A stretch of DNA of 64,000 nucleotides from a virus (Duplodnaviria > Caudoviricetes), in IMG/VR virus record IMGVR_UViG_2920951204_000001, positions 1 through 64,000 of that record; one strand, given 5' to 3'. The notes beneath the pieces are model-generated. The model did no database searches and had not been told where the DNA came from. It saw only the letters and a list, made by a program, of their open reading frames with translations. Below, one piece after another: positions 4,185-63,980 of the stretch; the stretch's first letter is position 1, and the number at the start of each line of letters is the position of its first letter. The translations under genes and the position numbers were made by a program.

Positions 4185-4276
4185 TTATCTCCTTTCTCGA
4201 TTCCATAAGAAATCAACCTTTCATTTGATTTTTTGATTAAAATAAATCAATTTTAGAGTTATTTTCTTGACTTATT

Positions 4277-4444
4277 TTATTGTATTTGTTTTAAATTTGG
4301 TATAAAATCTTCAAATCCATTATTTTCGTTGCATGTGTACTCAAAGTTTGACCAACTCTGCCATTTAGACGATTTTGCAGTTGCTCTATAACAATTATCT
4401 CTTTTGGTGCAATTAATACTACTGCACATTGTTATATCTGACAT
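4277..4444 (-). CDS. Small Cys-rich protein (55 aa, not in ORF track)
   Basis: GAGGTG SD then MSDITMCSSINCTKRDNCYRA...KQIQ*. Confidence 0.7.
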   Translation of the reverse strand: MSDITMCSSINCTKRDNCYRATAKSSKWQSWSNFEYTCNENNGFEDFIPNLKQIQ

Positions 4445-4456
4445 AATCCACCTCGC

Positions 4457-4879
4457 TTAATTTAGATAAAAATTAGTTACATAAGAAACAAGTTTTAATT
4501 TATCATCAAATATCTTATTGCTTAGTTCTATCTGCCACGGATGAAGTTTATTATGATTTTCATTCAACCCGATAACCGGAATATTATTTTCAAATGCAAT
4601 TGCCTGTTCAACTAATGTTCCTTTAGAAAAGCAATGCGAAAAATCAACAATTACCATATCGCTATGACGGACTTTATATAAATCATAATCCATAATTTCA
4701 CGCTGGCTGTCATAACCAACTTCCTTAAAATTGTAGTAATCATTAGGATTAATACAATTAACTTTCATATTTGAATATGTATGTTTAAACATTTTATTCA
4801 GCGTTCTTCTCCAACCGTTGATTTCTTCATCACTCAATCCTTCCATCGCTCCGGCTAGATATATCGTAAATTCTTTCAT
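4457..4879 (-). CDS. Nucleoside 2-deoxyribosyltransferase-like protein
   Basis: IYLAGAM, DLYKVRHSD, SKGTLVE motifs. Confidence 0.85.
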   Translation of the reverse strand: MKEFTIYLAGAMEGLSDEEINGWRRTLNKMFKHTYSNMKVNCINPNDYYNFKEVGYDSQREIMDYDLYKVRHSDMVIVDFSHCFSKGTLVEQAIAFENNIPVIGLNENHNKLHPWQIELSNKIFDDKLKLVSYVTNFYLN

Positions 4880-5438
4880 TTACCACGTTCTCCTTTCTAA
4901 TTGCATCCATCTCTTCAATCATTTTTGCAATATCCCATAAATCACGTTTGTTGTTTTCTATGACTACATCAACCTCTTTTTCAATACCCTTAAAATCTTT
5001 TTTGTCGTGTCTTAATCTTCTTTTAATTTCTTTAGGATTGTCGCCACGTTTTTTTAATCTGGATTTTAGGATTCTGTTTTTGGATTTTAAATAAACGGTT
5101 AATGTATCTTTACCTATGATATCCTTAATTTCTTGATAACCATCAGGTGTTAGAATTATTATCTTATCCTCATTAAATGTGGTAAGGTCTAATAATGCTG
5201 TACCATAATACCAAGTTCCTTCAATTGATTCATATTTCTTCCATTCGGCAAAGAAACCTTCCTCAATTTTTTCTTCAAAAGTTTCTTCATCTGTAAAATG
5301 ATATGTAACATCCTGTATTTCCTTCGGTCTCATTGGTCTGGTTGTCCAAGTTACAATTTTTTTATAGTCATAAAAATTGGTTAATTTTTTTACAACAGAA
5401 TCCTTACCACTTCCTGATTTACCCACAATTATAATCAT
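4830..5438 (-). CDS. gmk: Guanylate kinase-like protein
   Basis: GKSGSGKD P-loop, TTRPMR...YHF, WYYGT. Confidence 0.88.
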   Translation of the reverse strand: MIIIVGKSGSGKDSVVKKLTNFYDYKKIVTWTTRPMRPKEIQDVTYHFTDEETFEEKIEEGFFAEWKKYESIEGTWYYGTALLDLTTFNEDKIIILTPDGYQEIKDIIGKDTLTVYLKSKNRILKSRLKKRGDNPKEIKRRLRHDKKDFKGIEKEVDVVIENNKRDLWDIAKMIEEMDAIRKENVVNERIYDISSRSDGRIE

Positions 5439-5553
5439 GTTTCACCTAATCCCTTTCATCGTTTGATGATGCAGCTACACACCATTAAAACACCAATTGT
5501 CATTCCTAAAAGGAATAAACCTATTCCCGTTGCTATTCCCATAAACACCTCCA

Positions 5554-5739
5554 CTATATTTCTTTAATTTTATCTTTACAAACACCCTTATTATTTGGAA
5601 TGTATTTCTCTTGCCACAATAAGACATTCCAAGGAATATATTTCCTGTGTCTTAAACACTCAAAATCCATACATTCACGATTAGAACAATAAGGATATTC
5701 TTTTGTACCTAACTCAATTTTCTTTTTTGTTCTACTCAT
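5554..5739 (-). CDS. Small Cys-rich hypothetical protein
   Basis: ORF in operon, YCSNRECMDFECLRH. Confidence 0.6.
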   Translation of the reverse strand: MSRTKKKIELGTKEYPYCSNRECMDFECLRHRKYIPWNVLLWQEKYIPNNKGVCKDKIKEI

Positions 5740-5751
5740 ATATATTCTCCA

Positions 5752-6781: not shown

Positions 6782-6832
6782 TGTTCATCACCTCTTTTTA
6801 TATATTCTCTATTTAGTTTTTAATTTTGTTGA

Positions 6833-8812: not shown

Positions 8813-8996
8813 AATATTCTTTTAAATATGTAAGCATTTGTTCTTCTTCTGGAAAGAACGGATCTTGCTTCTTTTCGTTCTGTACCCAATGCAAGAAATT
8901 CATCCAAAATTGACCTGCTCTCAAATCAGGCATATAAGTCATATGTAATCTTGTTACTTCATTATAGAAGTTATATAATCTATTAGGATTCCTCAT
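8787..8996 (-). CDS. Hypothetical protein
   Basis: Overlapping in-operon ORF. Confidence 0.6.
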   Translation of the reverse strand: MRNPNRLYNFYNEVTRLHMTYMPDLRAGQFWMNFLHWVQNEKKQDPFFPEEEQMLTYLKEYCGEESNNG

Positions 8997-9288
8997 CTAT
9001 ATCAACCTTCCCGTTTTCGTCGTAAATATCGAACATTTCACCACAGTAGTCAAAAGTGTTTTTCTGCAATTCCTTGATTTTCTTTAAAGTCTTGCATGTA
9101 TACACTTTCATTCCCTGATATTTACCTTCAATGCCTACAAACCCTCCACGATAAAATCTTGAGAATTGTGGATGTTTATAAATTGCCCTATCCTCTATTA
9201 TATACTTTCTTTCTGGAATAATGGTTCCGTCTGTTTTCTCAATCTGTGGGATTATCTGCTCATATGGTTCTTTTCTCAAATAATACAT
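8983..9288 (-). CDS. Hypothetical protein
   Basis: Strong SD AGGAGGAG. Confidence 0.65.
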   Translation of the reverse strand: MYYLRKEPYEQIIPQIEKTDGTIIPERKYIIEDRAIYKHPQFSRFYRGGFVGIEGKYQGMKVYTCKTLKKIKELQKNTFDYCGEMFDIYDENGKVDIDEES

Positions 9289-9318
9289 AACTTTCTCCTC
9301 CTTTTGAAATGAACATTT

Positions 9319-9954
9319 CTAACCTTCATACATAATTAATTCTTTAGCATAAGGTAACGATTCAATCCATTTACAAAACGTATCAACCCATTCTTCTTTG
9401 AGTCTATGATGCCTGCGCTGAAAATACATATTACGCAGTTCTGCATAATTAGTATCCCAAGTTCTCATTTGTTCAAATCCTTCCATAAGAAGTCTCTTTG
9501 CTCTCACAAGAAGCCTGTTTTTATCCGTTGAATATGTTGGATTTTTATATTCCTGACGCAAACTCTCTAACCTATTTACTACAGCACCAACAATATCTTC
9601 ATCTTCTTCGCACCATACAAATAAATCTTTTGTGATTGGATTATCATTATTTAATAACTTGTGCATAGTTGAACAACTGTTTTTTGTATTGAAATGATAT
9701 GTATCAGCTTCGCTCCACCAGTATCTAGGCATATCTACATCAACAGATACATGGATCATTCTCATAAACTTTGAATGTTCACCACCTGCCTTAATAAGAT
9801 TCTGAGCAAGTTTCATATCAGACGCACCAATAACATAGTGATTATGCAAATTCCCATTATAGAAACTATCAATTCTATCCCAGCTATTTTTCGGGTTTCT
9901 CATACCTCTTAATGCGTGTTCAAAACCCCAAATCTCAGTATTTTCAAATTTCAA
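9319..9954 (-). CDS. Conserved phage protein, possibly ThyX-like fold
   Basis: HSKFMRMI...PRYWWSE...NSCSTMH pattern; nucleotide-metabolism context; function inferred. Confidence 0.5.
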   Translation of the reverse strand: MKFENTEIWGFEHALRGMRNPKNSWDRIDSFYNGNLHNHYVIGASDMKLAQNLIKAGGEHSKFMRMIHVSVDVDMPRYWWSEADTYHFNTKNSCSTMHKLLNNDNPITKDLFVWCEEDEDIVGAVVNRLESLRQEYKNPTYSTDKNRLLVRAKRLLMEGFEQMRTWDTNYAELRNMYFQRRHHRLKEEWVDTFCKWIESLPYAKELIMYEG

Positions 9955-10034
9955 ATTTAATATCCTCCTATTATTTTAAATTCCAATGAAAGTCCAATTT
10001 ACTTGGAAATTTCATCTCAAATTTCGCCTTATTT

Positions 10035-12177: not shown

Positions 12178-12225
12178 ATACTATATATGGTAGTTGTGTG
12201 TTTATCTAACCACTATATATTGTGT
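12178..12225. promoter_or_regulatory. Tandem NrdR-box-like pair
   Basis: ACTATATATGGT at 12180 and ACTATATATTGT at 12212, 32 bp apart. Confidence 0.65.
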
Positions 12226-12321
12226 TGATAACGGCATGAAATCCGTCTTTCCTTGACTTTTTGAGTCTCCAAAACGCCCTATTTATGGGCATTTCAGAAA
12301 TCCTCTACTGTATTATTCTCT

Positions 12322-12870
12322 CTATCGAAGATAATTCTTTAAGAAATATTCAAAATACTCTCTGATAAACAGTCCTGAATATTGATTGTTTGGCATAAAC
12401 ATAATTGGAATATTATATTTAAACCAAAAGCTGTGTATTGATGCAATGAAAGATTTCCGATTATATTTTGTATCATAATTTCCTGTTGCAATATCTTCAT
12501 AAGAAGCATTTTCAATTAACAGAACTTTTGTTTTAGGTGCAAGACATAATTCTTTTTCAAATCTATCACGCTCTTTTGTCAGATTACCACTTATCTCTTC
12601 AAGACTTGCTTTTCTCTCAATGACACATGAATTTGTAAAATACAAATCACGAAGTATTCCAAGTTTTTCATTAGCTGGGATCATGAATGAATAATCACCA
12701 TAGCTTAAAGCTTTCTTTTTATATTTAATTTCTTTTCTATCAAAATAATCCGTAATGTGAGAATTGATTTTTTCTCTTGTATCAACAAGAATTACAATAG
12801 AAGATATTAGTTCTTCCATTTCCTTATCTGTGTACTTATATTTGTTAAATATCGTCTTCGTCCTCCTCAA
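12322..12870 (-). CDS. ERCC4/XPF-family nuclease
   Basis: VDTRE, GDY, IERKASLEE motifs. Confidence 0.9.
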   Translation of the reverse strand: MRRTKTIFNKYKYTDKEMEELISSIVILVDTREKINSHITDYFDRKEIKYKKKALSYGDYSFMIPANEKLGILRDLYFTNSCVIERKASLEEISGNLTKERDRFEKELCLAPKTKVLLIENASYEDIATGNYDTKYNRKSFIASIHSFWFKYNIPIMFMPNNQYSGLFIREYFEYFLKNYLR

Positions 12871-14878
12871 TATCGTTTTTTATTACAAATTTACTCAACC
12901 AAAATTCAAATTTATCAGGTACTTCTTTATAAATTTTCTTACCTGTAACTGGATTTATTTCACCAGTTGGTTCTTTTTTATTCTTTTTTTCAAGGGAAAT
13001 AATATATAGAATAGTACCTAAATCAAATGGATTTCGGTTATACTGACTTGTCCACATTTTTACTTCTCGTGTTTTACCACTATAGATTTCAAAAAGATGG
13101 ACATTTACAATAGATTTTTTAATATCAAGTTCAGAAACATAATATAGACGTTTACTTACTTTAGAATCCGAGTCACTGACAATACCAAGAACTTCTCTTT
13201 GATTATCAAGTCTTTCCTTTAAAGTTAATTCTCTATAAGGAATTTTAGAAATCAATTCTTTAATAATTTGTTCAGAGTCAAGTTTATTAAATTGTTTGGC
13301 TGTCTCATTTCCATGTTTTATAAGTATATCAAATGGAATATTATTCTTTTCAGCTTTATCTTTGGAGATCTGCTTTGCACCATTTAACAAATCATATAAT
13401 CTTGCAATCTCAAGTAAAGTATTTACATCACCATATTTCTTAAAATAATTGATTCTAATAAGTTTATTTACAATAGTCTTATTAATTGAATTTGAAAATA
13501 GTGCAGTTAATACATCAGTAAATGTTTTATACTTCGACTGTCCTAATTCATAAAGAGTATCAACAACCCCTTCACCAAAGCCTTTTACACTTGACAAATT
13601 TGGATATATTAATTTATTCTCTTCATTAATTGTCACTTTTCTATTATCTGCACCAAATTCATAATCGCCTAGTTTATATCCCCAAAATTTAATTGCTTCT
13701 TTAACAAGAGCGTCTATCTTATCCTTTTTATTCTTTTCCTGATAATGATTGATTGCTACTTCATAAAATGTTTTAGTATGATGTGCTTTAAACCATGCTT
13801 GATAGGCAGAATCTCCACCCATTGAATAGGCATGTGGAGAATTAAATGCGTATGATCCAGAAGACTCTATTACATTCCAAACATTATTAAAATTATCTGT
13901 CTTGCCGATTTCTGCTTTCCAACCTTCTATTAATCGTTCCTGTAATTCTTTTAACATTTCAGGATGTAATTTATATTTCTTTTTTGAAATATTTTTAATA
14001 ACTCCATATGTTTCAGCCATTTTCAATTCCAAGAATGACAATACTTTCATAATAGATTCCTGATAAATCATGAAATGTGCAGTATCAAATAATAAATCAT
14101 CAATCTTTTTTTCGCCTGTAGTATATGGTTCACGATTCAAGAATGTACTAAGTAATGACGCAAAGCCTGGTCGAATTGCTGCAATGAAACTGCTTAACTC
14201 TGCTAGATTTTGCGGTTTATACTTCTTCACTCGATTAGTGGTCGCTTCTTTCTCACACTGATTGACACAACATGTAATACCATTTGCATAAATATCCCAT
14301 GTTTTTTTATCACCATCAATCATATGTCTTAGTTCATCAAATGTCGGAACTTCCATGCCAATGCTATGGAAGAATTTATATGTAAGATAAACACTATCTA
14401 CAATAAGAAAATCCTCTTTTACATATCCGAATTCATCAAGATAACCACCTTCAATAGCTGCACATACTGTTCTTTTGCCAGTTGATTCAGACACGGCACT
14501 TATCAGCCCTACTTCTCTTCGTATATCACCATCAAAAATAAAATGTCCACAAGCATGTACTTTTAAGTTAATAGTAATACCTTGATATTCATTACTTTGT
14601 TTGAATAAAGAGATATATTCTTCTGGTATGTAATCTTCAACATGAATATCCTCTTTTTCATCATCATCGGCATATTTCAAAGCTTTGTTATATTCATCAA
14701 GATATTTTGAAATCTGATTGGCATCTTCAGGTTTAACATCATTTGCACCTGCGTATAACTGCCATGCTGCTTTTTCTTTTAATTTTTCTATTGCCATCAA
14801 AGGATAACAACCATGTTCACCAAGTAATTTCCTTGCTGCTTTAACAAATGGTTCTTGTGTGGCAACATTTAGGTCAAT
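12845..14878 (-). CDS. dnaE: DNA polymerase III alpha (family C), exon 2
   Basis: Frame opens at 14878 with IDLN; HACG, KEDFL, AAIRPG, IYQE, YAFNSPHAYS motifs. Confidence 0.93.
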   Translation of the reverse strand: MDLNVATQEPFVKAARKLLGEHGCYPLMAIEKLKEKAAWQLYAGANDVKPEDANQISKYLDEYNKALKYADDDEKEDIHVEDYIPEEYISLFKQSNEYQGITINLKVHACGHFIFDGDIRREVGLISAVSESTGKRTVCAAIEGGYLDEFGYVKEDFLIVDSVYLTYKFFHSIGMEVPTFDELRHMIDGDKKTWDIYANGITCCVNQCEKEATTNRVKKYKPQNLAELSSFIAAIRPGFASLLSTFLNREPYTTGEKKIDDLLFDTAHFMIYQESIMKVLSFLELKMAETYGVIKNISKKKYKLHPEMLKELQERLIEGWKAEIGKTDNFNNVWNVIESSGSYAFNSPHAYSMGGDSAYQAWFKAHHTKTFYEVAINHYQEKNKKDKIDALVKEAIKFWGYKLGDYEFGADNRKVTINEENKLIYPNLSSVKGFGEGVVDTLYELGQSKYKTFTDVLTALFSNSINKTIVNKLIRINYFKKYGDVNTLLEIARLYDLLNGAKQISKDKAEKNNIPFDILIKHGNETAKQFNKLDSEQIIKELISKIPYRELTLKERLDNQREVLGIVSDSDSKVSKRLYYVSELDIKKSIVNVHLFEIYSGKTREVKMWTSQYNRNPFDLGTILYIISLEKKNKKEPTGEINPVTGKKIYKEVPDKFEFWLSKFVIKNDIEEDEDDI

Positions 14879-25175: not shown

Positions 25176-25212
25176 AATCTATCTCCTTAAGAAATGTCAG
25201 ATTCCTTCGACT

Positions 25213-27859: not shown

Positions 27860-27944
27860 CTCTTCGACTAAATTTCCGATATATCACACCTCATTTCTAC
27901 AGTCAAATATCTTCCAAGGAAACCGATATTTCTTGTCCATTTTG

Positions 27945-27991
27945 TTACTATATATAGTAGTTTTAATTTATATAACCACTATATATAGCGT
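27945..27991. promoter_or_regulatory. Tandem NrdR-box-like pair
   Basis: ACTATATATAGT at 27947 and ACTATATATAGC at 27978, 31 bp apart. Confidence 0.65.
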
Positions 27992-28410: not shown

Positions 28411-28486
28411 AAGTTGCCTCCTGTTCTTATGTTCTCTTCCAAAATTTCCACAAGAAACGAATCATTCCTGTTAAGTTATTCTCTAT

Positions 28487-30026: not shown

Positions 30027-30069
30027 ATCACACCTCCAACCTATCCAAAAGAAAGAAAAATTTCATTCT

Positions 30070-30823: not shown

Positions 30824-32253
30824 TTAAAACAAATCACATCCTGATTGTTTAAAACTTTCTACTTGTTTATTCCATTTTTCTTCATCCATGTTATACATTT
30901 TCATAAGACACTTCTTACAGTAAAATTTACTGATATCTCTTCCATGATATTTTAAATTCATACCAATAACATCCTTTGCTTTGATTCGCTTCAATTTACC
31001 AGATTGAGACTTGCATCCATTATCACAATATTTGTTAAAATACTGCGCAGCAATTTTCTCATCCAAATTACTATACTTGGCATACTCTTCAATAACCTCT
31101 TTTGTTGGTTCGTTTCTAAACACACCACCATTCCAAGCTTGATTGATATATTCATCTACTGTGCAATTCATAACTAACCATTTTGAATTACTTATAAAGT
31201 CTTCTCTTAAAATATTCTCCCAACGATTTCTCATTGTTGGATACCAATATTTATCAAGAATCCACGTTGATTTGGTGTAGTAGGGGCATGATACGGCACA
31301 GCCAACCCTTGAATATCCTTTTTTATACTTTGAATTTATTTTAATGCTTTTCCATATTGTATATAACCAGACATCCATTTCGTCCCATTTTCTTATTGGT
31401 AGTATTCCCTGCCAACATGTATTTCCCCATTCAGCTTCGTTTACCCATTCATCTTGATATCCGCTTCTAGTATTAGATTCTTCGTTTCGCATACCCATCC
31501 ACATTAAATATGGTTTGTTATGGTCTAAACGCCTAACCATTTCACCTACTTTGAAGATTCTACAACAACCACGAGAAATTCTATTAAATATAATATTTTG
31601 TTCTTTAATATATTGGTAAAATCCCTTCTCAGGATTCATAATCTCACAATTAGGAAAAGTCTTAACCATTCTGTATGTATCAGCACAGTCAAGCGATGTA
31701 TTATTAAATATTGCTTTTGTTTCTGGATATAATTTTCTGACTAGATGACAGGTAAGCATTGAATCCTTACCCATAGAAACAGGAATTATTGAAGTATATG
31801 TATTAAACTTCTCTGCTTTTTCTTTGATTAGTTCTAATGAATCAGCTTCAAGCTGCGTTAGATGTTCTTTCTGTAATTCGATTAAATCTTTCCAACTTGC
31901 TAAATCTACATCTGCTATATTGTCGTAGGATTTCAATTTGGTGCAATCCAATCTTTCATTGGAAATTTTGAACAAATAATAACATAAATGGTAGTTGCAA
32001 ATGCCATAAAATCAAAGAAAGGTAAGGATAATCCTAGGTAAAAGGTTATGTACATAACACTCAGGTATATGAGTGAACCCAATTTACAACGAGTATCTTA
32101 AATTCTTGCGAGATACAACCAAACAGCCATTTGAAGATCTGAAAGAAGGCTACTTTTGGCTTGATAAATCCATTATTAAAGGATTTGATAAGCAAGGAAA
32201 TGAACATAAATTCTATCGAGTGAAGATTGAAAATTCGCTTGAAAGATTGGATT
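30824..32253 (-). pseudogene. PAPS-reductase/DndC-like gene disrupted by an inversion of its 5' end
   Basis: SMGKDS PP-loop, CCRIFK, GMRNEES, RVGCAVSCP in 30824-31947; first 60 codons are on the + strand from 32073; 14-bp inverted repeat 31945-31958/32240-32253; re-inversion gives 433 aa. Confidence 0.88.
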
Positions 32254-37284: not shown

Positions 37285-37386
37285 TTCAGTACCTCTCTTT
37301 CTATTTTCTATGTATTTATTCTCTCTTTATCGTTCAAAAATTCGAAGGAAATGCTTCTTTCTAAGATTGTTTATTACTGGCTTTTT

Positions 37387-39346
37387 TCAAAAAATTTCCA
37401 TATCATCAACATCTTTATCAGTAAGTTTTTTTAGTTTTTCATAACATTTTTCTGTCATCATAAGTGTATTATTCACTAGCAGTATTTTCGTGTTATCTGG
37501 TACAATTTTCATGCCGTATCTTTTCAACCACTTCTTATTAATACGTTTTTTCTTATGGTTTCTTCTTTGAACATCTTTAGTGATATACTCAGTTATGAGG
37601 ATTTTATAACCTAACCCTTCGATTGTTTGTATATTCATTTATTCTCCCATCTGATTTATAATACTTTTCTACATAACTTCCAAATGGTATTCTTCAACAT
37701 ATTTTCTTCTCTTCCAAAACTTCCACCAAGGAAATTTTACATATTTTATTTCTACAACTCGAAATATCTTATCATCATTTTTATCTCTATCTAACCTTAA
37801 AGCAGGTGAACCAAACATTGCTTCGGCTAATTCGTTAATAGAAATATGTTCTCCAAGTTTGTATTCCTGTTTGTGTGGTTGTAGAGGATAATAAGAAATC
37901 ACGTCATGCTGTTGTAATTCATATGATCTCATACTATTGTTCTCCATTCTTCACTACATCAAATTTAATTGGTAACATAGCTGTAAATCTACTCTTCATC
38001 CAAGGTTTTTCTTTTGTTGCAAATTCATCACCAAATTCTTCTGCTAATACAAAATCTCCGACAGTATAGATGATAGAATATCCGGTTAAATCTTTTGGAA
38101 TCTCCTTATTTACATTACAGGCTTTAAGATGAACCATTTTATCTATGCACTCACCCATTAAATCTTGAAAGAATACAAACGTTCCATCACAATTGCAACG
38201 CTGCATTGTAAAATATTCAAAATCTGCATTTGGATTACGCTTGATAATTACATTAAAATAAGGTTTGTCGCCTTTAAGATAAGGAATATCTACTAAAATT
38301 GTTCCATCTTTGGCGCAAGTAACAACCGTAAATAACTCTCGTATATCCTGTTCAATCATGGATTCATATTTATTATTCTCCATACCATTGCACTGACCTG
38401 ATGCAATTCGTTCTTTTACAAATTCTAATGATTTACCCATTGCTATTCTCCTGTTTCTACTCGATCTTCATTCAACAAACCAAATTTTCGTAAATAATAC
38501 TGTTTGGTTTTATCATCAACTCTACAATAAAAATTATGTCTTCCTGATTTCTGTAGAGATAATGTGTTTATATTAAGTTCTGCGTCCATAATAATCAGCA
38601 ATTCATTTAATGTAATATCATAACAATGAAATGTCTCGCCTATCAGAAGCTTATAGTATTTTTTCTCTAATTTTGTTATTTTTCTCACCTACTTTCATGA
38701 CCGCAAGAAACGTGGTTTTACTTAGTTTTATTTTTTAAAACATCATCAATTTGTTTCATTAGAAACTTCTTTGTAGTTGCGTGATAATCAGCGCATCCTG
38801 TTTGCATATCAACAGCTTCCCACCATACACAATGATCAGGTTCATGATAACCAAAATTACTAATTTTGTACCCTTTATACTCGTAGATACCTTTTGATAT
38901 TTTTGTTGCTCCCATGCTTAATCCTCCAAACAACTTTTAAATGAAACCAAAATTTCTTGTTAGTTTTTATCCAAGTAAACTATATTATCTACATTATAAT
39001 GAAATCCACCTATCTCTCCGTTAAAACTACCTTTGACATACCATACATAAGGACTGATACCTTCATTCATTTTATCTGCAAGTTCATCAGCTTTTCTTTG
39101 ATGTTCATCGGCTTCATTTTGCATAGATAATTTTTGAGAATCCCATATAAGATTTGGAATTGTATCTACACACTTTCTATACATTTCAGACTCTTTTATA
39201 TATTCTCTTATCACTTTTGTCATTTTGGGAATATTGTCTTTTAATATCGGCTCATTGCTAAGTTCATATGGATATAGGATTAAAACTCTCTTGTCCATAT
39301 ATTCTGTAGATATTAACTCCTGTACACAAAACTGTGGTTTTACCAA
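37387..39346 (-). other. Six small hypothetical genes (37387-37638, 37669-37947, 37934-38440, 38443-38688, 38718-38933, 38960-39346)
   Basis: Packed minus-strand ORFs with SDs; 38718-38933 is bracketed by repeat sites. Confidence 0.65.
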
Positions 39347-41176: not shown

Positions 41177-41260
41177 TGTATTATTCTCTTAATTATTGTG
41201 ATTTTTGAGCGACTTGCTCTTAGATTTTCCTATGAAACTTCGGTTTACTTTTGTTTATGA

Positions 41261-43087
41261 TTATCTTAAGTATTCTGTTGGAGACGAACCAATTACTAAC
41301 GATCCTAATCCCCATTGATTACAACATACACAATAACTCATAAATTCTTGTACCATATCATTGGTAATAATATAAAAATCATTCGTCTCTATCGCTTTGT
41401 CTAAAATCCAAAAACATACTTCATAAATTGATTTTGTAATATCCCCATATTTAAATTGTTTATCATATCTGAATGTGAGACTTATATTTTTATAAACAGA
41501 ACCAAAAGCTCCATCATCAACTCTAAACGGAATAGAATAAATCATCTTAATTTCAGATAAAGGTTGTTCTTTTATGTCTGAAATTTTATTCTGAACCATT
41601 TCTCTAATACCATTTTTAGGAATAATTACTTGTCCCCACGAAAATTCAACCTTATCTCGACCTTTATTGAACGGATAATTATCTTTTCTTTCAAATTCAT
41701 GATTAAAACTCAAAAATTTTAATATATCTTGAAACGAATAATATTTTAATTCTTTATCCATTTTATTTTCTCCTTTATTAATTCAAAATCTTACTCAACT
41801 TCTTCACAACTTCTTCGCACAATCTATACAAATAAGTTTTCTCAAATTCTATTTTAAAATTGCCAACAGCCTGTCTATATTGCTGACGTAATTTGTTGTC
41901 TATCATGTTATTCGCCGTCATATAATTTAACTGTTCCATCTGAATTATAGATAGGTGTAATTCCAAATCGATAATCTGATCTTTTTACAAAATACATAAC
42001 TTTAGTATTCTTATCATAGAGAACTTCAGTGCGTTCATCATCTTTATAATCACCTTTATAGATTGTTACTAAATCTATATATTTATTTCCAATATCACTA
42101 TTTTCAGGTTCGATGTCACCTTTAGTACATCCAGTCATTCCAAAACACAATGTTAATCCTAATACAACCGCTAAAATTTTCTTCTTCATATGATTTATTC
42201 ACCCAACTCTTTCAATGCATTAACAAGTTCTGCAAGTCTTGGATTTTCAGGATGCTCCTTTGCCATCTTTTCATATAAAGCAATATTATTCATCTTTTCA
42301 ATCTCAGACTTTAGCTCCTTCTCAATAGAAGCTTTCTGCTTTGCAATTTCTTTCTGACGATTTTCCTCATCAATTCTTGCATTGTATGCGTTCATATTAA
42401 CTACGCCAACAACCTGAGCTGTCACACCTTTACCATATTCTTCGACTGCCTTAATTTCTTTTAAAATTCCAAGAACTCTATTGTCTTTTCCTCTCGCATT
42501 TACAATCAGATATAATGGATGATTGGTATCATACTTAACAATTTCATTAATATCTTCATCATATAAAGCAAATCCATAATCCTTCTTGTTGTAATCATCT
42601 ACCAAATTTACAATCGCCACTTTATTAAATCCTGTCATTTTATTATCCTCACTTTCATCTCTAACAATATCTAATTCACTTCTCTTGAACCAATATAATC
42701 CATTGGAACTTGCTGCATTGTACATTCCATCAATCTGAACCGCTATTGATCCACTTGTAGTTTTAATAACTTGTCCATATAAACCAATAATATTTTCTTC
42801 TCTGTATTTTCTTTTATCAGTATATGTAACTTTTACTCGTTGATTTTGATATTCTTCATAATCGTATATCTTGCTCATCGCATCACCTCCTGCTAATATA
42901 TTCTCCAAAGGAAATCTATGATTCATTAGTTTTCTACATTTTTTAACACATGCCATAATTTATTAGTCGTGTCGTTTTCATCGTCATCGACCACCACAAA
43001 CCCTTTATTTTCAAGGGTTTCAACGACCTCTTTTGCGTCTTTTCCATAATATGCCTTAATTTCAGCTATTTTCTTTAATTTTGCCAT
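41261..43087 (-). other. Hypothetical genes including a small lipoprotein (41908-42189), a 253-aa ORF (42195-42956) and a single-gene unit (42926-43087)
   Basis: Lipobox-like GMTGC; packed ORFs with SDs. Confidence 0.6.
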
Positions 43088-43150
43088 TTTTACCTCTTTT
43101 CTAACCCAATGAAATTCCGCTTTCATGCGAACTTCATGTTATGTTATTCT

Positions 43151-43654: not shown

Positions 43655-43856
43655 TATGTATTAGGAGTAAACGCTGCGTTTTCGGTATACCAAACCTCTT
43701 ACTCCTTTATGTATTTTGTTGTAAAATCACTCGAAAATAGGCACGTCTGCCTAATCGGATGAAAAAAATATTTCATTACTTTACTTTTTTGTTTTGGGAA
43801 CACTTAAACGATTGTTCAAGCTAAGAAAATTTTCTATACCATATTATTCTCTGTTA

Positions 43857-45094: not shown

Positions 45095-45508
45095 TTCACC
45101 TCACTTATCTTCTTTCCAATCAACCATAATAAATGATAAAAATCCCAAACATGGCTCTATTAATAAAATTTTCCATAATTTAACTGGTTCAGGAAAAATA
45201 AAATTCATTAATAAATTTAATGTCATAAGCCATATTAAAAATCTTATTGTAGATTTATACATGCTATTCTCCTCTTACTTATTCAAAACAATCAGAATGT
45301 TACTTAGATATAAAGCATAGAAGACTAAATACCCACCACCTGCCAAGAATAATAATTTGAACACAAAGTTGACAACATTCTTTTTCGTCCATGTTATCCC
45401 AACAATAAGGTTAAAAATTCCCATAATTAATAAAATAATGTTTAAAATATTCATATTTCACCTCCAAAATTCCTGAAGAAATGTGCGTTTCTTTCTAATG
45501 TAAAATAT

Positions 45509-45556
45509 ATACCATATATAGTATATATCGCTTATTTTTAATACTATATATGGTAT
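45509..45556. promoter_or_regulatory. Tandem NrdR-box-like pair
   Basis: ACCATATATAGT at 45511 and ACTATATATGGT at 45543, 32 bp apart. Confidence 0.6.
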
Positions 45557-49404: not shown

Positions 49405-49476
49405 CAGCCCTAGCAGGACTCGAACCTGCAAATCGTGGGATCAAAACCCACTGCCTTACCGTTTGGCGATAGAGCT
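49405..49476 (-). tRNA. tRNA-Gln (TTG)
   Basis: Acceptor AGCTCTA/TAGGGCT, anticodon arm GTGGG-TTTTGAT-CCCAC, T arm GCAGG-TTCGAGT-CCTGC; no encoded CCA. Confidence 0.93.
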
Positions 49477-56804: not shown

Positions 56805-57545
56805 CTACCCATATATAAATGATGTTCTTTTTTTGTTTGCTCTAATTCTTTCGTCTTCCAGACAAGCATATCTTTCAGTTATTCTTAAATCCGAATGAGC
56901 AAACATTGTCGATATATCTACAAGGGCTTGTGCTTTATCATCCGAATTTTTAATGTACTGATTAGCCATTGTTTTTCTAAGTCCATGTGTTCCAATTTTC
57001 TGTGGAATACCAGCTTCCTTCCTTGTTTTTTCCATTATTTCATACCAACTTTTTTCACCTATTTTAGAGCCTTTCTGACTTGTAAAAATATAATCATTTA
57101 GTTCCTGTGGTTTAACCATTCTATTACACCATTTCAACCAATCAACGAGTGCTTGAACAGAATCATCATTCCAATATAATTCTATATGTTTATGAGTTCT
57201 TTTTGTTTTTTCTGGAACATACTCTACTTTATTTTTAAAATTCCAATTTATATCAAAAATGTCAGACCATTTAAGGTTACAAAAATCTCCACCACGCAGC
57301 CCAATATCAATAGCGAATACAAACATTGTTAAATTTCTTCTTGCTATTGTCTCCTTTTTTATTGATGTTGCACTCTCCACCTTATTTTTAAATATATTAT
57401 ACACTCGCATTATTTCTTCACGATCTTTTAAACACCACATTTTTGTTGATCTTCCTATATTATCAACTTTTTTAACCCTGTTTATCGGAAATTGTACAAC
57501 CTTTGATTCTATATTTCCCATTTTATTAAAATCTACTGCCAACAC
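56805..57545 (-). CDS. Small tyrosine recombinase
   Basis: GLRGGD (R), EKT (K), HGLR, AHS (H), TERY (Y) all present; 246 aa. Confidence 0.92.
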   Translation of the reverse strand: MLAVDFNKMGNIESKVVQFPINRVKKVDNIGRSTKMWCLKDREEIMRVYNIFKNKVESATSIKKETIARRNLTMFVFAIDIGLRGGDFCNLKWSDIFDINWNFKNKVEYVPEKTKRTHKHIELYWNDDSVQALVDWLKWCNRMVKPQELNDYIFTSQKGSKIGEKSWYEIMEKTRKEAGIPQKIGTHGLRKTMANQYIKNSDDKAQALVDISTMFAHSDLRITERYACLEDERIRANKKRTSFIYG

Positions 57546-58281: not shown

Positions 58282-58340
58282 ATTTTCTCCTTTTCATATA
58301 ATGAAATCGTCAATTCATGGTATTTTTAAATACCTTTACA

Positions 58341-59555
58341 TTACGCTCTCAGCATAGCCAAGTTAATAATTGTTGGGTGTGAACCTGCACCCTCTATTCC
58401 TTTGCTAAACGCATCAGGAATTACCTTCTTTAATATTTGATATGCTCCATTTACATCTGCATTTATCTTCTTTCCGCAATCTGCAATGAATAATCCTCTA
58501 TGAACTCTGCGTTCCTTATTATAATTCTCTTTTACAGGATCTTCATTATCAAGAAATGATGTTCCAGAAGTACATGCTTCCTCATTTTCTATAAATCTAA
58601 TTCCATTATTCTCACATTTATATGCAAGCATCTGGATAAATAGTTCATAAGGAATATAAGTAAAATTCTGCATACCTTGTTTCTTTTGTTTCCATTCATC
58701 GTTGTGTCCTACAATCAATGTGTCAATTTCATATAAGACACACCAATCAACTACATACTTACTTATACAATGCATCTGATATTTAATCATTTCATATCGC
58801 TTGTCTGTAAGTTTCTGTAACTTGTTCGACCAATCTTTTCCGTTGACTTTCTTCAACTCTGACTGAATATTTGCTTTCTGTTTATTGTAAAACCGATTAA
58901 TTGACTTAATAACTCCACCTTTAACAGCTATTGGATTTTCACCAATGTTGTTTACCATAGTTATGAAATTATCAACTCCAATATCAATGGCAGCTACTCT
59001 TTCAGAAGTTTCTGAAATGTCTGGCACTTCGATTTCATAGACGATTTCCATTACATACTTTTTACATCTAGGAATGAATCTGCATTGTAATATTCTTTCT
59101 TGTGCATTTGTCTTAAACATATTGTTGTATGGTTTAAATGGCTTCCATGCAAAATATACATATCCATCTTTCAATTTCACTTTGTTGCTATCAAGAGATA
59201 GTAAGAATCTTCCGTCTTTATCTTTATATTTTGGAATCTTTGGTCTACCTAAATATTTACTAGGATTTTTCTTCCAATCCTTAATTGCCTTGAAAAATGC
59301 TTTCCAATTTTTATCAAGTATCCTTAAAGTTCCTTGACCTGTATTATTTCCAATATCTTTGTATGGCTCTGACTCTTTTACAAGTTGAAATAATTGATTA
59401 TATTTAATCCAGTTTCCATTATTTATAAATTCTTGACGAATAATATAATTCGCATAGTTGTATAAATTCTTTGACTTGAAACACATTTCATCAACAAATT
59501 TATAAAAATCAGTTCCATACTTTATATTATGCTGTTCACATCTTGTTATTTTCGT
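58341..59555 (-). CDS. tnpB: TnpB-family nuclease, same clade as 25767-27068; non-ATG start
   Basis: Frame extends to ACG-KITRCEQHNIK after AAGGAG; AIDIGVDN, EEACTS, NADVNG. Confidence 0.9.
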   Translation of the reverse strand, partial: TKITRCEQHNIKYGTDFYKFVDEMCFKSKNLYNYANYIIRQEFINNGNWIKYNQLFQLVKESEPYKDIGNNTGQGTLRILDKNWKAFFKAIKDWKKNPSKYLGRPKIPKYKDKDGRFLLSLDSNKVKLKDGYVYFAWKPFKPYNNMFKTNAQERILQCRFIPRCKKYVMEIVYEIEVPDISETSERVAAIDIGVDNFITMVNNIGENPIAVKGGVIKSINRFYNKQKANIQSELKKVNGKDWSNKLQKLTDKRYEMIKYQMHCISKYVVDWCVLYEIDTLIVGHNDEWKQKKQGMQNFTYIPYELFIQMLAYKCENNGIRFIENEEACTSGTSFLDNEDPVKENYNKERRVHRGLFIADCGKKINADVNGAYQILKKVIPDAFSKGIEGAGSHPTIINLAMLRA

Positions 59556-60008: not shown

Positions 60009-60036
60009 ATTATACTCAACATTATTCATTTGTCAA
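60009..60036 (-). promoter_or_regulatory. SigA promoter
   Basis: TTGACA-16-TATAAT upstream of the RHH gene. Confidence 0.75.
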
Positions 60037-60097
60037 TACTTTTTTGGTAGTTTTTAATATCAATTAAATATCAAAAACCAAGTAAATCATTCTTTCA

Positions 60098-60301
60098 TTA
60101 TATCCTTAGTCCTTCGGTAATAAATCTCCTAAAGCATCCTTCCATTCTCCAAACTTCATACTTTACTGTACTTTTATCTTGATATTCAACATAAGCTACA
60201 TTAGTTTCAAATCCTTCTATATCAATTAAATTTACATATCCAATTTGCAAATAATGTTCATCTTTTGGATCAATGCAAATAAGTACGTCTCCTTCATTCA
60301 T
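60098..60301 (-). CDS. Hypothetical protein (single-gene unit)
   Basis: Bracketed by sites 60081 and 60316. Confidence 0.7.
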   Translation of the reverse strand: MNEGDVLICIDPKDEHYLQIGYVNLIDIEGFETNVAYVEYQDKSTVKYEVWRMEGCFRRFITEGLRI

Positions 60302-60322
60302 AAAATCACCTCCAAAGGAAAG

Positions 60323-60547
60323 TTAAAGTTCATTAGCTTTCTGTAGTTGCAATATCAATTCTAACTCTGCAATTTCCGTTTTTAATTTCTTCATATTCAA
60401 TAATGCATTAATAGCGTTATCTTCATAATTTGATTGCTCAATATTTTTCATATCAATTCTAAAATATTCTTGTTGATTTCCCAAATCTCGCTTCTTTGCA
60501 GCTAATCGCTGTTCCAATACGTCATTCATATTATTCACTCCTTCCAC
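60323..60547 (-). CDS. Hypothetical protein (single-gene unit)
   Basis: Bracketed by sites 60316 and 60548. Confidence 0.65.
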   Translation of the reverse strand: MEGVNNMNDVLEQRLAAKKRDLGNQQEYFRIDMKNIEQSNYEDNAINALLNMKKLKTEIAELELILQLQKANEL

Positions 60548-60609
60548 ATGAAAACTTGGTTTCTTGTCACTTTAATATTCTCTGTTTTAATAAGTAATGG
60601 TGCTATAAT

Positions 60610-60945
60610 TTATACAGCACCATTATCTTCTAAAAATTTTCTATACATATTTTCAATTCTATTCAAATCATCTTTGTGCAAATCACCGATTTTGAATATA
60701 AAGCTATCTTTTGTAAGTAGCGTTACTTTTGATACTCTCGCAGTTGAAGCCAATCTCAAACTCGCTTCTTCCCAATAGATAATAGGAGTATCATAAGGAT
60801 CTTCTTTTCTTACCTTATGCTTTGTTATCTTGACAGATAATACACCAAGTAAATTTTCATCAAGTACCACAACAGGTCTATTCAGTATTCTACTTGGATC
60901 TTCTTCTAATGGAAATTCAACAAACCATACTTCTCCTTTGTTCAT
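60610..60945 (-). CDS. PemK/MazF-like toxin
   Basis: GEVWFVEFP.E...RPVVVL...KIT; STARVSK. Confidence 0.8.
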   Translation of the reverse strand: MNKGEVWFVEFPLEEDPSRILNRPVVVLDENLLGVLSVKITKHKVRKEDPYDTPIIYWEEASLRLASTARVSKVTLLTKDSFIFKIGDLHKDDLNRIENMYRKFLEDNGAV

Positions 60946-61262
60946 TATTCAATACCTCTTTCTTTTTTCATTTGCTCAAACATATCATCCCATTCTGATT
61001 CAGTTGCCCAATCGCCAACAGAAGATATTGTCGCTTTCCCTTCTTTATTGTAATTTGTATTTTTCATTGCTAACTGATATGATTTCAAGCCATATATTCC
61101 CGTATTCATATCAGGATGAAATGGTAAAGCCTGTTCTCTTACGGCTTGTTTAGCAGCCATTATAAAGAAAGTAGTCATGTCCATTCCAAGATTAGACATC
61201 AGCTCCTGTAATTGTGCTTTCAGTGCTTCATCAATTCTCATTGTTACATTTGTATTTGCCAT
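60945..61262 (-). CDS. RelB/DinJ-family antitoxin
   Basis: MANTNVTMRID..LK...LGMDMTT...KQAVREQALPF; ATG at 61262 after AAGGAG. Confidence 0.85.
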   Translation of the reverse strand: MANTNVTMRIDEALKAQLQELMSNLGMDMTTFFIMAAKQAVREQALPFHPDMNTGIYGLKSYQLAMKNTNYNKEGKATISSVGDWATESEWDDMFEQMKKERGIE

Positions 61263-61287
61263 ATATATCACTCCTTTCTTTAATATT

Positions 61288-61316
61288 ATTATATTCTCCG
61301 TTTTTATCACTGTCAA
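61288..61316 (-). promoter_or_regulatory. SigA promoter of the TA operon
   Basis: Perfect TTGACA-17-TATAAT. Confidence 0.8.
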
Positions 61317-61472
61317 TACATTGTTATAACATTGTACATAAAGCTATTATTTTTAATAAAATAATTCTTTAACAATTTTGCAAGTTTCAATATCCTGTGC
61401 ATACCAATGACCATTTAACTGAATTATTCTGTATTTTAATCCCATTCAATCTATCTCCTTTTCTATAAAAGG

Positions 61473-63980
61473 TTAATCTGTTTCCTCTATTCTACCTTCC
61501 AAATCATAAATAACTTCCTGTAACGTTTGCATTCTTACAATAAGCATATTATTAGCATTAGGTGCGTCATCACCATTATCAATGATACATTTCTCACATC
61601 TTTTAATTTCCTTTTCCAATTCACTAATATATTCTCTTATCATACCTTGCACACCAACCAAATCTGGTTGATTTTCGTATTTATATAACTTTTCCAATGG
61701 TATCTGCATAGCATCATTTGCCTCAAAATTAGCTTCAACATACGCATACATTTCTCTTGGCTTTGAAGCAAAATCCCCTAAATTCCATTGTATTTTCTTT
61801 ACTATTTTTTCCATTATATCACCTCAATATTATATTCTCCATCATGTCAGAAACGGAACTGCCTTACGACAATTCCATTCCAAATGAATCTATTATTTCA
61901 TATACAAAAGGAAGCATTGCTGCTCCCTGTTATTTTAAAATTTCGTTTTCTTTTTCATATAATGTTAATAACATTGTTGCCGTCATTCTTCGCATTTTTT
62001 CTGTAGAAGTTAATTTGAATTCGTGTTCCGGATCATTTTTATCCACAAAATTATAATCCTTGTAGATTGTGACTCCTTGTAATTCTTCTGTTACAACTTC
62101 AACAATCATATCTCCACCAAATTCTGCAATGTCCTGTTTTAATTCTTCAATTAAGCACGCACAATCGTAACTTACATTGATTCCTTCATCGTTAATGAAT
62201 CCCATTCTTTATCTCCCTTAATATTTATATTTTCCATTTTCGTCAAAATCATCACATTCAATTTCAATGCGTTCGTCCTCGCCTTCTCTTTCAAAATTTT
62301 GATAATAAGCATTTCCTTTTTGTTCAGAAATCAAAAGCCATAACTCTTCGTCAGTTAAGTCTGGTTTACTATCAATAAATTTTTGAATTTTTTCGTAATC
62401 CACATCTCCATCTTCATTCTGAAATTCTATGTCCCTTTCTGTTTTATTATATTTTTCGAGAATGGTGTGTTCATACACATCGTAATCATAACTATCAATA
62501 ATTTCTTCATTCATAAGCAAATTGAATAATTCATAAAAACTATTTGCTTTATATTTACGTTTCCAAATTCCATTAGTTGATTTGCCACTCCAATATATCG
62601 TACTCATAATTTTCCTCCTAAATTTCTAATTCAAATTGTTTAATAACTTCATCAAGTGTTTTATAACCTTGCCAATCTTTTCCTCTGGTTATCACATTAA
62701 CCGTTGTATACTTGCAACCTTTATGTCTTGCATCTAACTCTGTAGTTAATGTTATCCAATTTCCTGTGTTTCTAGTTTTTTCTTCCAACGCTTTCTTTAC
62801 TTTTTCAAATTTTGTCATATTAATCTACCTTCTTTCTTAATTATTTTTTATCTTTATCACCTTTTTTTATAAAATACTCACCACGAATATATTTACGTTT
62901 AGCATAATCATTGCCATACTTGTTTATATCAAGAAATTGCTGATTTATATCAAATTCTGTATCTTCCGGCTGCTCCGGTTCATGTAGCCAAAAATAAATC
63001 TCCTCGATATGTCCCATAACGTAGCCTACTCCAATACCTAATATTATTGTTATAATCTCTGCCATTCTTTTATTCCTCCTAAAATTTTTTATTTAATTAT
63101 ACTGCCCAATAAGTCCTATAAAAAGGACTTAATACTCATATTTGAAGCATATTTTAATTTATTTTATTATATCATTAAAGTTATATTAAATCTACTCACA
63201 ATCCATTTTAACCTCCTCTCTAAATATGACTTTCAACTCAATTTTTTCTCCCAATATTCATTTGCTTCCTTTGAGCCTCTAATATATAGCGCCACTTGTT
63301 TGCCTTTCTGAAAACACTTAGGACAAAGTTTCCCATGATAAGGCATCTCATCATCAATGGAATACATTCTGTTTCCACAATCAGTGAAAAAGAATGTTCC
63401 ATGTCCGTTCTCTTCTGGTAAAACTCTATGTGTTTTTATATTTTAGTAATACGGTTCATATCCAGATTCCATACTTCCCCGCTTACGTTCAATCGCATAA
63501 CTTTCACCTTCACCAATATATTTACCATCTCTGAAAATATAATTTGCATTTTCTCTAATCCAAGGATATTCTGGATTGTCTTTGTTCTCTTCCAGACATT
63601 CCTGCCAGATTTTTTCAAAATCTTTTCTGCACTGACGTTTGCTTTTTCTTTCAGATGCTACCAACTGATTTCCTGGATAATAATATCCACCTTCAGCCGG
63701 TTCATATATTGGATATTCCTCATAATGACTTATGTATCTCATAGTAAACACCTACCTTTCACTTGAATTTTCCGATTCATTAGTTTTCTTTAATCCAATT
63801 CTTTACATATTCAACAGCCTTATCTTTTTCAAAAGTTCCATGACTATGACCATCTGTATAACACTCTTCTTCAAAAATGCATTCGGCAACGATTGAATCA
63901 AGCTCATGTGCATTTTCTCTTGCGGTATTATATTTATTTAACATATCATCATAACTTTCGTAATAAGAAGATATTGCCAT
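61473..63980 (-). other. Small early hypothetical genes (61473-61814, 61930-62205, 62218-62607, 62618-62818, 62841-63065, 63443-63751, 63780-63980)
   Basis: Minus-strand ORFs, mostly with SDs, often acidic. Confidence 0.65.

Follow-up and report, generated by a model that had tools for sequence, protein, structure and literature searches.

The window, a 64,000-nt stretch of IMG/VR record IMGVR_UViG_2920951204_000001, is part of a prophage of about 135 kb in a gut bacterium. The prophage encodes a YonO-type RNA polymerase, a Sak4-like AAA_24 protein that could drive short-homology exchange, and three tyrosine recombinases; a serine recombinase was not found in it. Short sites with inverted arms are dispersed over the window, and two repeats of this kind flank an invertible segment at a gene of the PAPS-reductase family (Table 1). 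All nine example sites quoted in a preliminary description of this DNA lie where it had placed them. It had claimed about 27 sites; about 25 were counted with one arm mismatch allowed, all in gene orientation. The replication block at 12.3–25.1 kb, described as free of sites, contains a single weak candidate (24352–24365, right arm TATC). Exact copies at 50342, 52771 and 53060 lie within long ORFs and look like background.

Table 1. Sites, inverton and recombinase gene in the window. Exact and one-mismatch refer to the arms; centres are the N6.
Feature	Coordinates	Strand	Remarks
Exact site, centre GGTTGA (gene strand)	4209..4222	-	24 nt upstream of ORF 3867–4184 start
Exact site	9306..9319	-	Overlaps ORF 9319–9954 stop; 17 nt upstream of 8983–9288 start
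One-mismatch site, TAAA arm, TTGGAA extension	9988..10001	-	Brackets ORF 9319–9954 together with 9306
Exact intergenic site	12238..12251	-	Edge of replication block
One-mismatch site, GAAT arm	25191..25204	-	Upstream of start at 25175
Exact intergenic site, TTGGAA extension	27919..27932	-	
One-mismatch site, centre GATTCG	28454..28467	-	Relatives: centre with 6 left, 7 right flank types
Exact site, centre TTTTTC	30051..30064	-	Relatives: 22 instances, 6 left, 10 right flank types
One-mismatch site, TAAA arm, centre ATTCAA	30285..30298	-	
PAPS-reductase-family gene body (PF01507)	30824..31975	-	Native start on inverted segment
Inverted repeat A, centre CCAATC and TTTCA arm	31945..31958		Inside 5′ part of PAPS-reductase-family gene
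Invertible segment, 281 bp	31959..32239		5′ UTR and first 55 codons of PAPS-reductase-family gene
Inverted repeat B	32240..32253		Gene strand reads GAAT, CCAATC, TTTC
Exact intergenic site	37348..37361	-	
One-mismatch site	38707..38720	-	Overlaps ORF 38718–38933 stop; relatives have exact form
Exact site, centre TTTTGG	38943..38956	-	Final slot of conserved order in relatives
One-mismatch site, TAAA arm, centre CCGAAG	41234..41247	-	Relatives have exact form
One-mismatch site, GAAT arm, centre CATAGA	42911..42924	-	Relatives: 8 left, 12 right flank types
Exact site, centre GCGGAA	43111..43124	-	Relatives: 41 instances
Exact site, centre TATTTT	43761..43774	-	Slot conserved in 50 related loci
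Exact site, centre CGCACA	45478..45491	-	Inside conserved ~110-nt intergenic element; at least 8 different genes follow in relatives
Tyrosine recombinase, 246 aa	56805..57545	-	Without N-terminal core-binding domain; R, HxxR, H, Y retained
One-mismatch site, GAAT arm, centre TGACGA	58303..58316	-	Relatives: 8 left, 9 right flank types
One-mismatch site	60083..60096	-	Adjoins ORF 60098–60301 stop
One-mismatch site, GAAC arm	60318..60331	-	Between ORFs 60098–60301 and 60323–60547
Exact site, centre CCAAGT	60550..60563	-	Three unrelated contexts in relatives

The window was screened without bias for palindromes with all arms of 4–6 nt and spacings of 0–30. The top palindrome was GAAA-N6-TTTC, with 15 copies observed and 3.9 expected (uncorrected P ~1e-5, borderline after multiple-test correction for the window alone) and 1–5 copies at other spacings. 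The remainder of the prophage has 12 further sites against an estimated expectation of about 3.7. The N6 excess was repeated in 121 related IMG/VR loci: 80 loci have 396 sites (37–152 at other spacings), representing 78 distinct 14-mers (18–52 at other spacings), and 41 further loci have 61 sites (8–35 at other spacings). The host chromosome showed no excess, with 163 copies at N6 and 96–190 at other spacings. A relaxed definition (at most one arm mismatch and GGR a few bases downstream) yielded 24 sites at N6 on the gene strand, against 7–10 at other spacings, and one N6 site on the opposite strand. The recurrent palindromic site reported earlier is real, as its N6-specific excess in the window, the rest of the prophage and the related loci indicates.

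Position counts gave the arms as A-W-GAAA and TTTC-W-T, with only the 6-nt spacing enriched. This agrees with the generic geometry of tyrosine-recombinase crossover sites, inverted arms around a central region of 6–8 bp. Conserved sequence is limited to 14–24 bp, and the 4–6 conserved bp per arm are short for a recombinase-binding element. Of the earlier wording as an imperfect palindrome, the inverted arms around N6 stand; the site as a whole is directional, with a left arm GAAW or TAAA, N6, TTTC and then WTTKGGA. Most sites follow the upstream stop codon and precede the next ribosome-binding site at a constant distance of about 5 nt. A function in gene expression would also be compatible with this constant distance and with the directional GGA extension. 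In the minus-strand arm, 14 of 18 exact sites are intergenic, though this arm is 82% coding, and ten are 17–27 nt upstream of a start codon. Some sites are preceded by a GAGAATA box or a promoter-like palindrome, and many are located directly behind a stop codon without room for a promoter. A −10 signal upstream of the sites was absent from the position counts, and scans for consensus promoters and terminators at the sites remained at background level. As RNA, the arms form a stem of 4 bp at most and were paired in 13 of 61 minimum-energy folds; co-variation of flanking bases at the sites was not found. The sites were said to punctuate the accessory genes. They do lie at junctions, but in relatives they occupy only about 8% of these; the other 92% or so are highly mosaic without one.

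The repeats at 31945–31958 and 32240–32253 form one pair with a shared centre in inverted orientation. In the window, the 281-bp segment between them is flipped away from the PAPS-reductase-family gene body. Relatives have the segment in both orientations, as in the window in 9 loci and reversed in 28, and the gene body keeps a constant orientation across all those loci. The inner 281 bp share 95–97% identity in the closest relatives, and the exchange of the inner flanks coincides precisely with the 11–14-bp repeats. Judged from these alignments, the same-centre pair noticed earlier is the boundary of a true invertible segment. Four inverton lineages have four centres (CCAATC, CAACGC, CGAAAC and GTAACG). 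In each, the centre is common to both repeats, as expected of crossover partners, and the TTTCA arm is retained. The flipped state was seen in three of the four lineages; lineages that lack matched repeats invariably show the forward state. There, the repeat on the upstream side has the form of a canonical site of the family with the TTGGAA extension. This repeat is an exact site as found in locus L128, and in L132 in a forward configuration that was reconstructed by hand.

In relatives, one and the same 14-mer, centre included, is flanked on both sides by unrelated sequences that are combined in many ways; 13 left types with 8 right and 8 left with 12 right are examples. For centre GCGGAA, each of two left flank types occurs with an identical set of five right flank types. 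Identity in unrelated contexts mostly ends 0–6 nt past the 14-mer, and the reassortment was repeated in a second, independent region. An unbiased scan for 14-mers recurring in unrelated contexts returned almost exclusively the site family, ribosome-binding sites and the GAGAATA box; among these three kinds, only the site family shared non-consensus bases between contexts. The preliminary description had suggested asking whether breakpoints among relatives fall at the sites; the flanks are reassorted there, but not there alone. Mosaic breakpoints also occur at many site-free junctions, and in the window homology ends were only slightly, and not significantly, more frequent at site junctions (mean 12.3 vs 7.1 elsewhere, P = 0.13). 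At the 45478 site, homology continues through the ribosome-binding site up to the start codon, and the arms show no more conservation than the sequence around them.

Centres within one genome are distinct, as had been proposed: none of 81 genome pieces has a repeated 14-mer, whereas random allele assignment, a null that ignores synteny, gave a mean of 33 such pieces. The order of centres is the same across relatives (584 pairs vs 0; 77 vs 0 in the second region), while the spacing between neighbouring centres varies 2–10 fold and the DNA between them is variable. With relatives this close (89–98% in the anchor protein), common descent by itself would be expected to conserve the centres. From the comparison of loci, the fixed order fits free cassette capture less well than an exchange of alleles among related genomes.

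None of the phage recombinases is linked to the sites. Two were aligned and keep the catalytic R, HxxR, H or W, and Y. With the integron integrase model TIGR02249 two recombinases scored 16.5 and 15.9 bits, far from the cut-off of 265, and the third had no match. The third-best NCBIfam match of the 246-aa recombinase is a tyrosine-type DNA invertase family (E 1.3e-10, below the cut-off). The preliminary description named this protein as the recombinase to assay on the sites. It has one close relative in IMG/VR, and five near-complete related proviruses, in which sites and inverton are present, have 2–4 tyrosine recombinase genes each but no small recombinase of its size. The protein is a candidate enzyme for the sites in this prophage only.

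Sites at which relatives swapped genes, together with a gene start that flips, point to an enzyme-driven shuffling of genes. The inverton, the reassorted flanks and the strict order of unrepeated centres favour recombination sites over simple operators. The sites are best read as an ordered series of crossover points, each with its own centre, accompanied by one inverton. A phage-encoded tyrosine-recombinase system that uses the dispersed sites for crossover has a probability of roughly 0.55. Each site would consist of the two inverted arms around a 6-bp overlap region, and the prophage would have some 25–30 gene-oriented sites in total, every one with a different overlap. Strand exchange by tyrosine recombinases requires identical overlaps. 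Sites within one genome could consequently not recombine with each other, and deletions would be avoided. The same-numbered site of a related, co-resident genome could recombine and yield collinear chimeras; two exchanges would replace the genes in between. The sole intragenomic pair with the same overlap is in inverted orientation and forms an inverton that joins the 5′ UTR and first 55 codons to the PAPS-reductase-family gene or separates them from it. We infer the identity of the acting recombinase, cleavage at the flanks of N6, and an enzymatic rather than homology-driven exchange between genomes.

It is possible, though doubtful, that the sites are instead regulatory elements, either operators for a dimeric DNA-binding protein or an RNA-level signal before the ribosome-binding site. 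Operators for a repressor were the alternative given in the preliminary description. Reassortment would then be a by-product of gene-boundary mosaicism through relaxed homologous or illegitimate recombination, and the inverton would have done no more than adopt one of these elements as its repeat. A dimeric operator would suit the 10-bp distance between the arm centres. The position of most sites 17–27 nt upstream of starts, the common directional GGA extension and the box or palindrome before some sites also agree with regulation, as do the equally mosaic site-free junctions and the encoded Sak4-like recombinase. There is a precedent in SPbeta, where the dispersed SPBRE repeat serves the recombinase-fold repressor MrpR as operator (PMC10516654). 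However, an operator needs neither a unique centre in each copy nor the same centre in unrelated contexts, and a promoter would not fit at the many sites right behind a stop codon. The inverton repeats of four lineages retain only the family arm and a partner-matched centre, the signature of recombinase sites. The two aligned recombinases keep their catalytic residues, unlike MrpR, and the rarely paired arms without co-varying flanks argue against the RNA form.

The integron-like character given to the array earlier, in which single genes between two sites would leave as circles and enter sites elsewhere, is improbable. Seven single genes of the window are bracketed by two sites, all in agreement with the relaxed site list, and a small recombinase with intact catalytic residues is present. 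The bracketing sites always differ in their centre, which should block excision; the centre order is fixed, without transposed slots. Neither attC-type folded structures nor an integron integrase were found, and nothing indicated that circular cassettes are inserted or excised. The earlier interpretation as recombination sites is thus retained for the crossover-site behaviour, the distinct centres, the inverton and the flank reassortment, and dropped for free cassette capture. That the pattern arose by chance, or from the composition of an AT-rich DNA in which ATGAAA starts and purine-rich ribosome-binding sites occur, is very improbable. The degenerate half-sites of the preliminary description are indeed common words (239 and 678 copies), and the excess in the window by itself is borderline. 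Against chance, the excess occurs at the 6-nt spacing alone, is strand-specific, does not extend to the host chromosome and was replicated in three independent sequence sets.

The R64 shufflon uses the tyrosine recombinase Rci and many short asymmetric sfx sites, each with a well-conserved arm on one side of a fixed central region and a poorly conserved arm on the other; its inversion alters a gene end. Likewise, the inverton repeats share the centre and one arm (TTTCA), with a looser second arm. Shufflon sites have one common centre, inverted orientations and a single gene cluster, whereas about 25 co-oriented sites with their own centres are spread here over more than 60 kb, with one inverting pair. 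Invertons of gut bacteria include intragenic invertons (PMC10028968). In these and with FimB/FimE-type invertases, a short inverted-repeat pair also flips a segment with the start of a coding sequence. The element described here differs in that it lies within a PAPS-reductase-family gene of a prophage, and in that its repeats belong to a far larger family scattered over the same phage genome.

PeSLs of T4-type phages combine promoter and terminator stem-loops and recombine by mutual homology into mini-circles (PMC2839356, PMC4122927). In both cases, short conserved intergenic motifs mark points of insertion, deletion and replacement in hyperplastic regions of close relatives. The sites of 14–24 bp differ by mutually different centres, no evident promoter or terminator, and site-specific inversion of one pair. 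A PeSL-type cassette, for which a strong sigma-70-type promoter and a terminator stem-loop would be expected, was rejected on the missing −10 signal, the stem of at most 4 bp and the background-level promoter and terminator scan. Integrons were reported in phage genomes (PMC9892861). Like the array, they combine a tyrosine recombinase with short genes that have recombination sites at their borders. The array has a fixed slot order instead of free capture, and has no attC-type palindromes of tens of bases, attI, Pc platform or IntI-type integrase. An attC identity, which would mean paired core sites in such a palindrome at the 3′ end of every cassette, was rejected on the conserved length and the early end of identity beyond the 14-mer, and cassette capture in variable order at one attI platform on the single order of centres (584 vs 0, 77 vs 0).

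SPBRE, a motif of 15 bp found at about ten promoters, is the target of a repressor that has the recombinase fold but has lost recombinase function (PMC10516654). SPbeta resembles the prophage as a large prophage with a dispersed short intergenic repeat, a YonO-type RNA polymerase and recombinase-fold proteins. The sites described here are more numerous, have unique centres and include one inverting pair, and the aligned recombinases are catalytically intact in their key residues. We know of no natural array of this kind. Heterospecific lox and FRT sites have the same arms and different spacers that do not cross-react, and two different sites allow a clean replacement of the DNA between them. 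The same logic is proposed here for the ordered crossover sites, but the spacer variants are a laboratory design, and their enzyme and arms are unrelated.

All nine palindromes quoted in the preliminary description were found as given, and its degenerate half-sites occur 14 times in the window at a spacing of 6 and 0-7 times at other spacings. A screen of every 4-6-nt arm with spacings of 0-30 ranked GAAA-N6-TTTC first (15 observed vs. 3.9 expected). The excess extends to the part of the prophage beyond the window and is gone in the host chromosome. Eighty related IMG/VR loci had 396 occurrences at N6 vs. 37-152 at other spacings (78 vs. 18-52 distinct 14-mers), and the excess was again present in 41 other loci (61 vs. 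8-35). Position counts over 61 distinct sites gave the consensus A-W-GAAA, N6, TTTC-W-T-T-K-G-G/A-A, so the site is directional. If sites may have one mismatch but must carry the GGR extension, 24 of them lie on the gene strand of the window vs. 1 on the other strand. About 25 sites are a fair count for the window, in line with the earlier estimate of about 27, and the genes described as bracketed by sites are all bracketed. The minus arm has 18 exact sites; 14 of these fall between genes, and ten are located 17-27 nt upstream of a start codon.

The window (G000:C3:45645-109644) is part of a region of low GC content that spans about 135 kb (C3, approximately 45-182 kb) and has two arms, one with minus-strand and the other with plus-strand genes. 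Among the gene products of the window are a split DNA polymerase III alpha, a DnaB-like helicase, an NAD-dependent ligase, NrdD, an RNA ligase, methyltransferases, TnpB genes and a Sak4-like AAA_24 protein. The plus arm, or late arm, is headed by an 838-aa homologue of YonO, the single-subunit RNA polymerase of SPbeta (25.6% identity to yonO, 49% to Enterocloster phage proteins), followed by PhoH, exonuclease, terminase and portal genes. Among named phages, those closest on the protein level are the phiCD211 group, Lactococcus 949-group phages and Enterocloster phages. Close DNA relatives were detected neither in the phage collection (megablast) nor among 60 related species genomes; relatives of the prophage were obtained only from IMG/VR, by protein. 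The two separate ORFs of DNA polymerase III alpha encode a finger and HhH part and a PHP part and are separated by about 1.2 kb with small ORFs. This may be due to an intervening element or a natural split. Two TnpB-type genes are present together with two further transposase-like genes (phrog_506), the latter two with a tRNA gene between them.

Coordinates of features in the prophage and its relatives (window positions unless a contig or locus is named)
Feature	Position	Strand	Remark
YonO homologue	L018:15012-17528 = G000:C3:124656-127172	+	838 aa
DNA polymerase III alpha ORFs	12845-14800 and 16020-17318	-	
TnpB-type and transposase-like genes	25767-27068, 58341-59486, 48188-49192, 51516-52523	-	
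tRNA	49405-49476	-	sole Rfam match in the window
AAA_24 protein	21969-23108	-	379 aa
Sigma-like ORF	54213-54836	-	207 aa
AGAGAATAW (examples)	43144-43152, 60575-60583, 28476-28484, 37316-37324	-	
ACYATATATRGT	12180-12191, 27947-27958, 45511-45522, 45543-45554		
Perfect inverted repeat	31945-31958 and 32240-32253		14 bp, bounds the inverton
Inverted repeat pair of a more distant lineage	L129, L130, L133, L140, about 2647-2837		13 bp

The inverton is a 281-bp invertible segment with the 5' part of a PAPS-reductase-family gene. Its plus-strand ORF at 32073 codes for 55 residues, which in 28 related loci sit directly upstream of the PAPS-reductase-family gene and in frame with it; in 9 loci the piece is flipped, as in the window. 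The inner flanks are exchanged exactly at the repeats, which keep TTTCA and a 6-nt centre, the variable bases of the site. The centre varies by lineage (CCAATC, CAACGC, CGAAAC, GTAACG) and is always equal in both repeats of one genome. Three of the four centre lineages include the flipped state, and only the forward state occurs in genomes with differing centres or without the inner copy. The upstream repeat of that state has the canonical form of the dispersed family, including the extension. Because of the matched centres, the flank exchange and this canonical repeat, the sequence comparison indicates that a recombinase acts on family-type sites and that matching centres accompany inversion. 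In a more distant lineage, the region just upstream of the PAPS-reductase-family gene has a different inverted repeat pair with a distance of 165 bp, possibly a second invertible element unrelated to the first.

Across the relatives, the same 14-mer, centre included, is flanked by many combinations of unrelated left and right sequences, and identity stops on either side mostly within 0-6 nt beyond the site. In an unbiased scan, 14-mers common to unrelated contexts were almost only the site family, ribosome-binding sites and the GAGAATA box; among these three kinds, only the site family shared non-consensus bases across contexts. The same 14-mer was never found twice in one genome piece. The order of the centres is single in every locus, with 584 ordered pairs vs. 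0 and, in a second region, 77 vs. 0, and neighbour-to-neighbour distances vary several-fold. The window sites obey this order: CGCACA, TATTTT, GCGGAA, CATAGA, TTTTGG. At the first of these (site 45478; 45478-45491, minus strand), the conserved intergenic element reaches as far as the start codon, with no particular conservation of the arms. The more distant Enterocloster phage PMBT24 (YonO 49% identical) lacks the GAAA-N6-TTTC excess. PMBT24 (L178 and L179) has its own enriched palindromes, AGCT-N8-AGCT (9 vs. 0.7), TTAAA-N7-TTTAA (13 vs. 2.4) and TGAAA-N4-TTTCA (7 vs. 0.7), and encodes a XerD-like protein of 272 aa among small early genes.

Three genes for tyrosine recombinases are present in the prophage, among them one for a 346-aa protein at C3:137412, and none for a serine recombinase. 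The 246-aa recombinase (56805-57545, minus strand), named initially as the candidate enzyme, retains R, HxxR, H and Y, has no core-binding domain and shows a weak likeness to FimB/FimE-type invertases. It has a single close relative in IMG/VR, and a search for an exact-protein record found none. Five near-complete related proviruses have 2-4 recombinase genes each, none of them of this size. Among these genes are those of a conserved type of 346 aa whose residues are intact and of another type without a core-binding domain that has short motifs in common with the 246-aa protein. On conservation, the 246-aa recombinase is ruled out as the conserved enzyme of the site family; it may act in this prophage.

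Several functions of the sites were rejected. The site does not form a stable hairpin: the bases at -1 and +14 are non-complementary in most cases, and the arms are paired in the minimum-energy fold at only 13 of 61 sites. In an Rfam search of the window, the site matched no known RNA family. A consensus scan for sigma-70-type promoters or terminators at the sites stayed at shuffle level, and position counts revealed no -10 box upstream of the sites. SPbeta YonO starts late genes from a single site (PMC5467207). Sites as promoters of the phage YonO-type RNA polymerase were dropped as unsupported; the sites are many and located in the early/accessory arm.

Other motifs were noted in the window. 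AGAGAATAW occurs 33 times in the window vs. 6 expected, always on the gene strand. Longer forms recur in relatives in unrelated contexts, and some copies are located 10-20 nt upstream of a palindromic site. The motif is possibly the -10 region of promoters for a phage or alternative host sigma factor. One ORF has a weak likeness to sigma-70/ECF-type sigma factors (36.5 bits, under the cut-off of 42.9), and phage PMBT24 has an annotated sigma factor at a similar early-arm position. The 12-bp palindrome-like word ACYATATATRGT was present four times vs. 0.02 expected. Upstream of site 45478, the conserved intergenic element has two of the copies in inverted orientation; the word may serve as a promoter or operator.

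We interpret the sites as recombination sites, with a probability of about 0.55. Their placement just upstream of the ribosome-binding site would also fit a regulatory role; beside the shared centres between unrelated flanks and the inverton, we consider such a role less likely. If the sites were operators instead, the dataset would still define a regulon, as well as a clean intragenic inverton in this large prophage from a gut bacterium. The integron-like architecture of the preliminary description, taken literally, is very improbable: the site is not attC and not part of an integron. Short homologies could also serve for DNA exchange by a Sak4-like recombinase. The AAA_24 family, which we take to be Sak4-like single-strand-annealing recombinases, makes the 379-aa protein a candidate driver of site-independent mosaicism. 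Most mosaic junctions are without any site, and homology ends in the window favoured site junctions as a trend that was not significant.

Recombination sites of this kind may form a natural cassette-exchange scaffold in this phage group, a model we hold tentatively and at somewhat below even odds. It would consist of about 25-30 ordered sites that share their arms and have centres incompatible with one another. With these sites, a phage tyrosine recombinase would swap accessory genes between related genomes at the same slot, the ordered position of a site, and the incompatible centres would avoid internal deletions. A phase-variable switch of the PAPS-reductase-family gene would be run by this enzyme and site type as well.

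How phage mosaics come to have their breakpoints at gene borders has long been an open question. It is usually explained by illegitimate recombination with subsequent selection or by relaxed homologous recombination (PMC2327257, PMC3945230). Here, a short site with common arms and one unique centre per slot is located at reassortment points in more than 100 related phage genome pieces, and the same site type serves site-specific inversion. Together, these properties make a dedicated site-specific route to modular exchange directly testable. If true, the scaffold would add a new class to the natural recombination-site arrays and be an enzymatic form of the 'linker sequences' of the modular theory of phage evolution. 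It would offer a mutually orthogonal site set with a possible use in genome engineering and document a phase-variable gene inside a prophage. In the literature that was searched, no phage genome was described with such sites in a natural, ordered array. Closest in mechanism are the shufflon and inverton systems with tyrosine recombinases, and closest in population effect are the PeSL cassettes of T4-type phages (PMC2839356). Engineered heterospecific lox/FRT sites follow the same logic of distinct centres.
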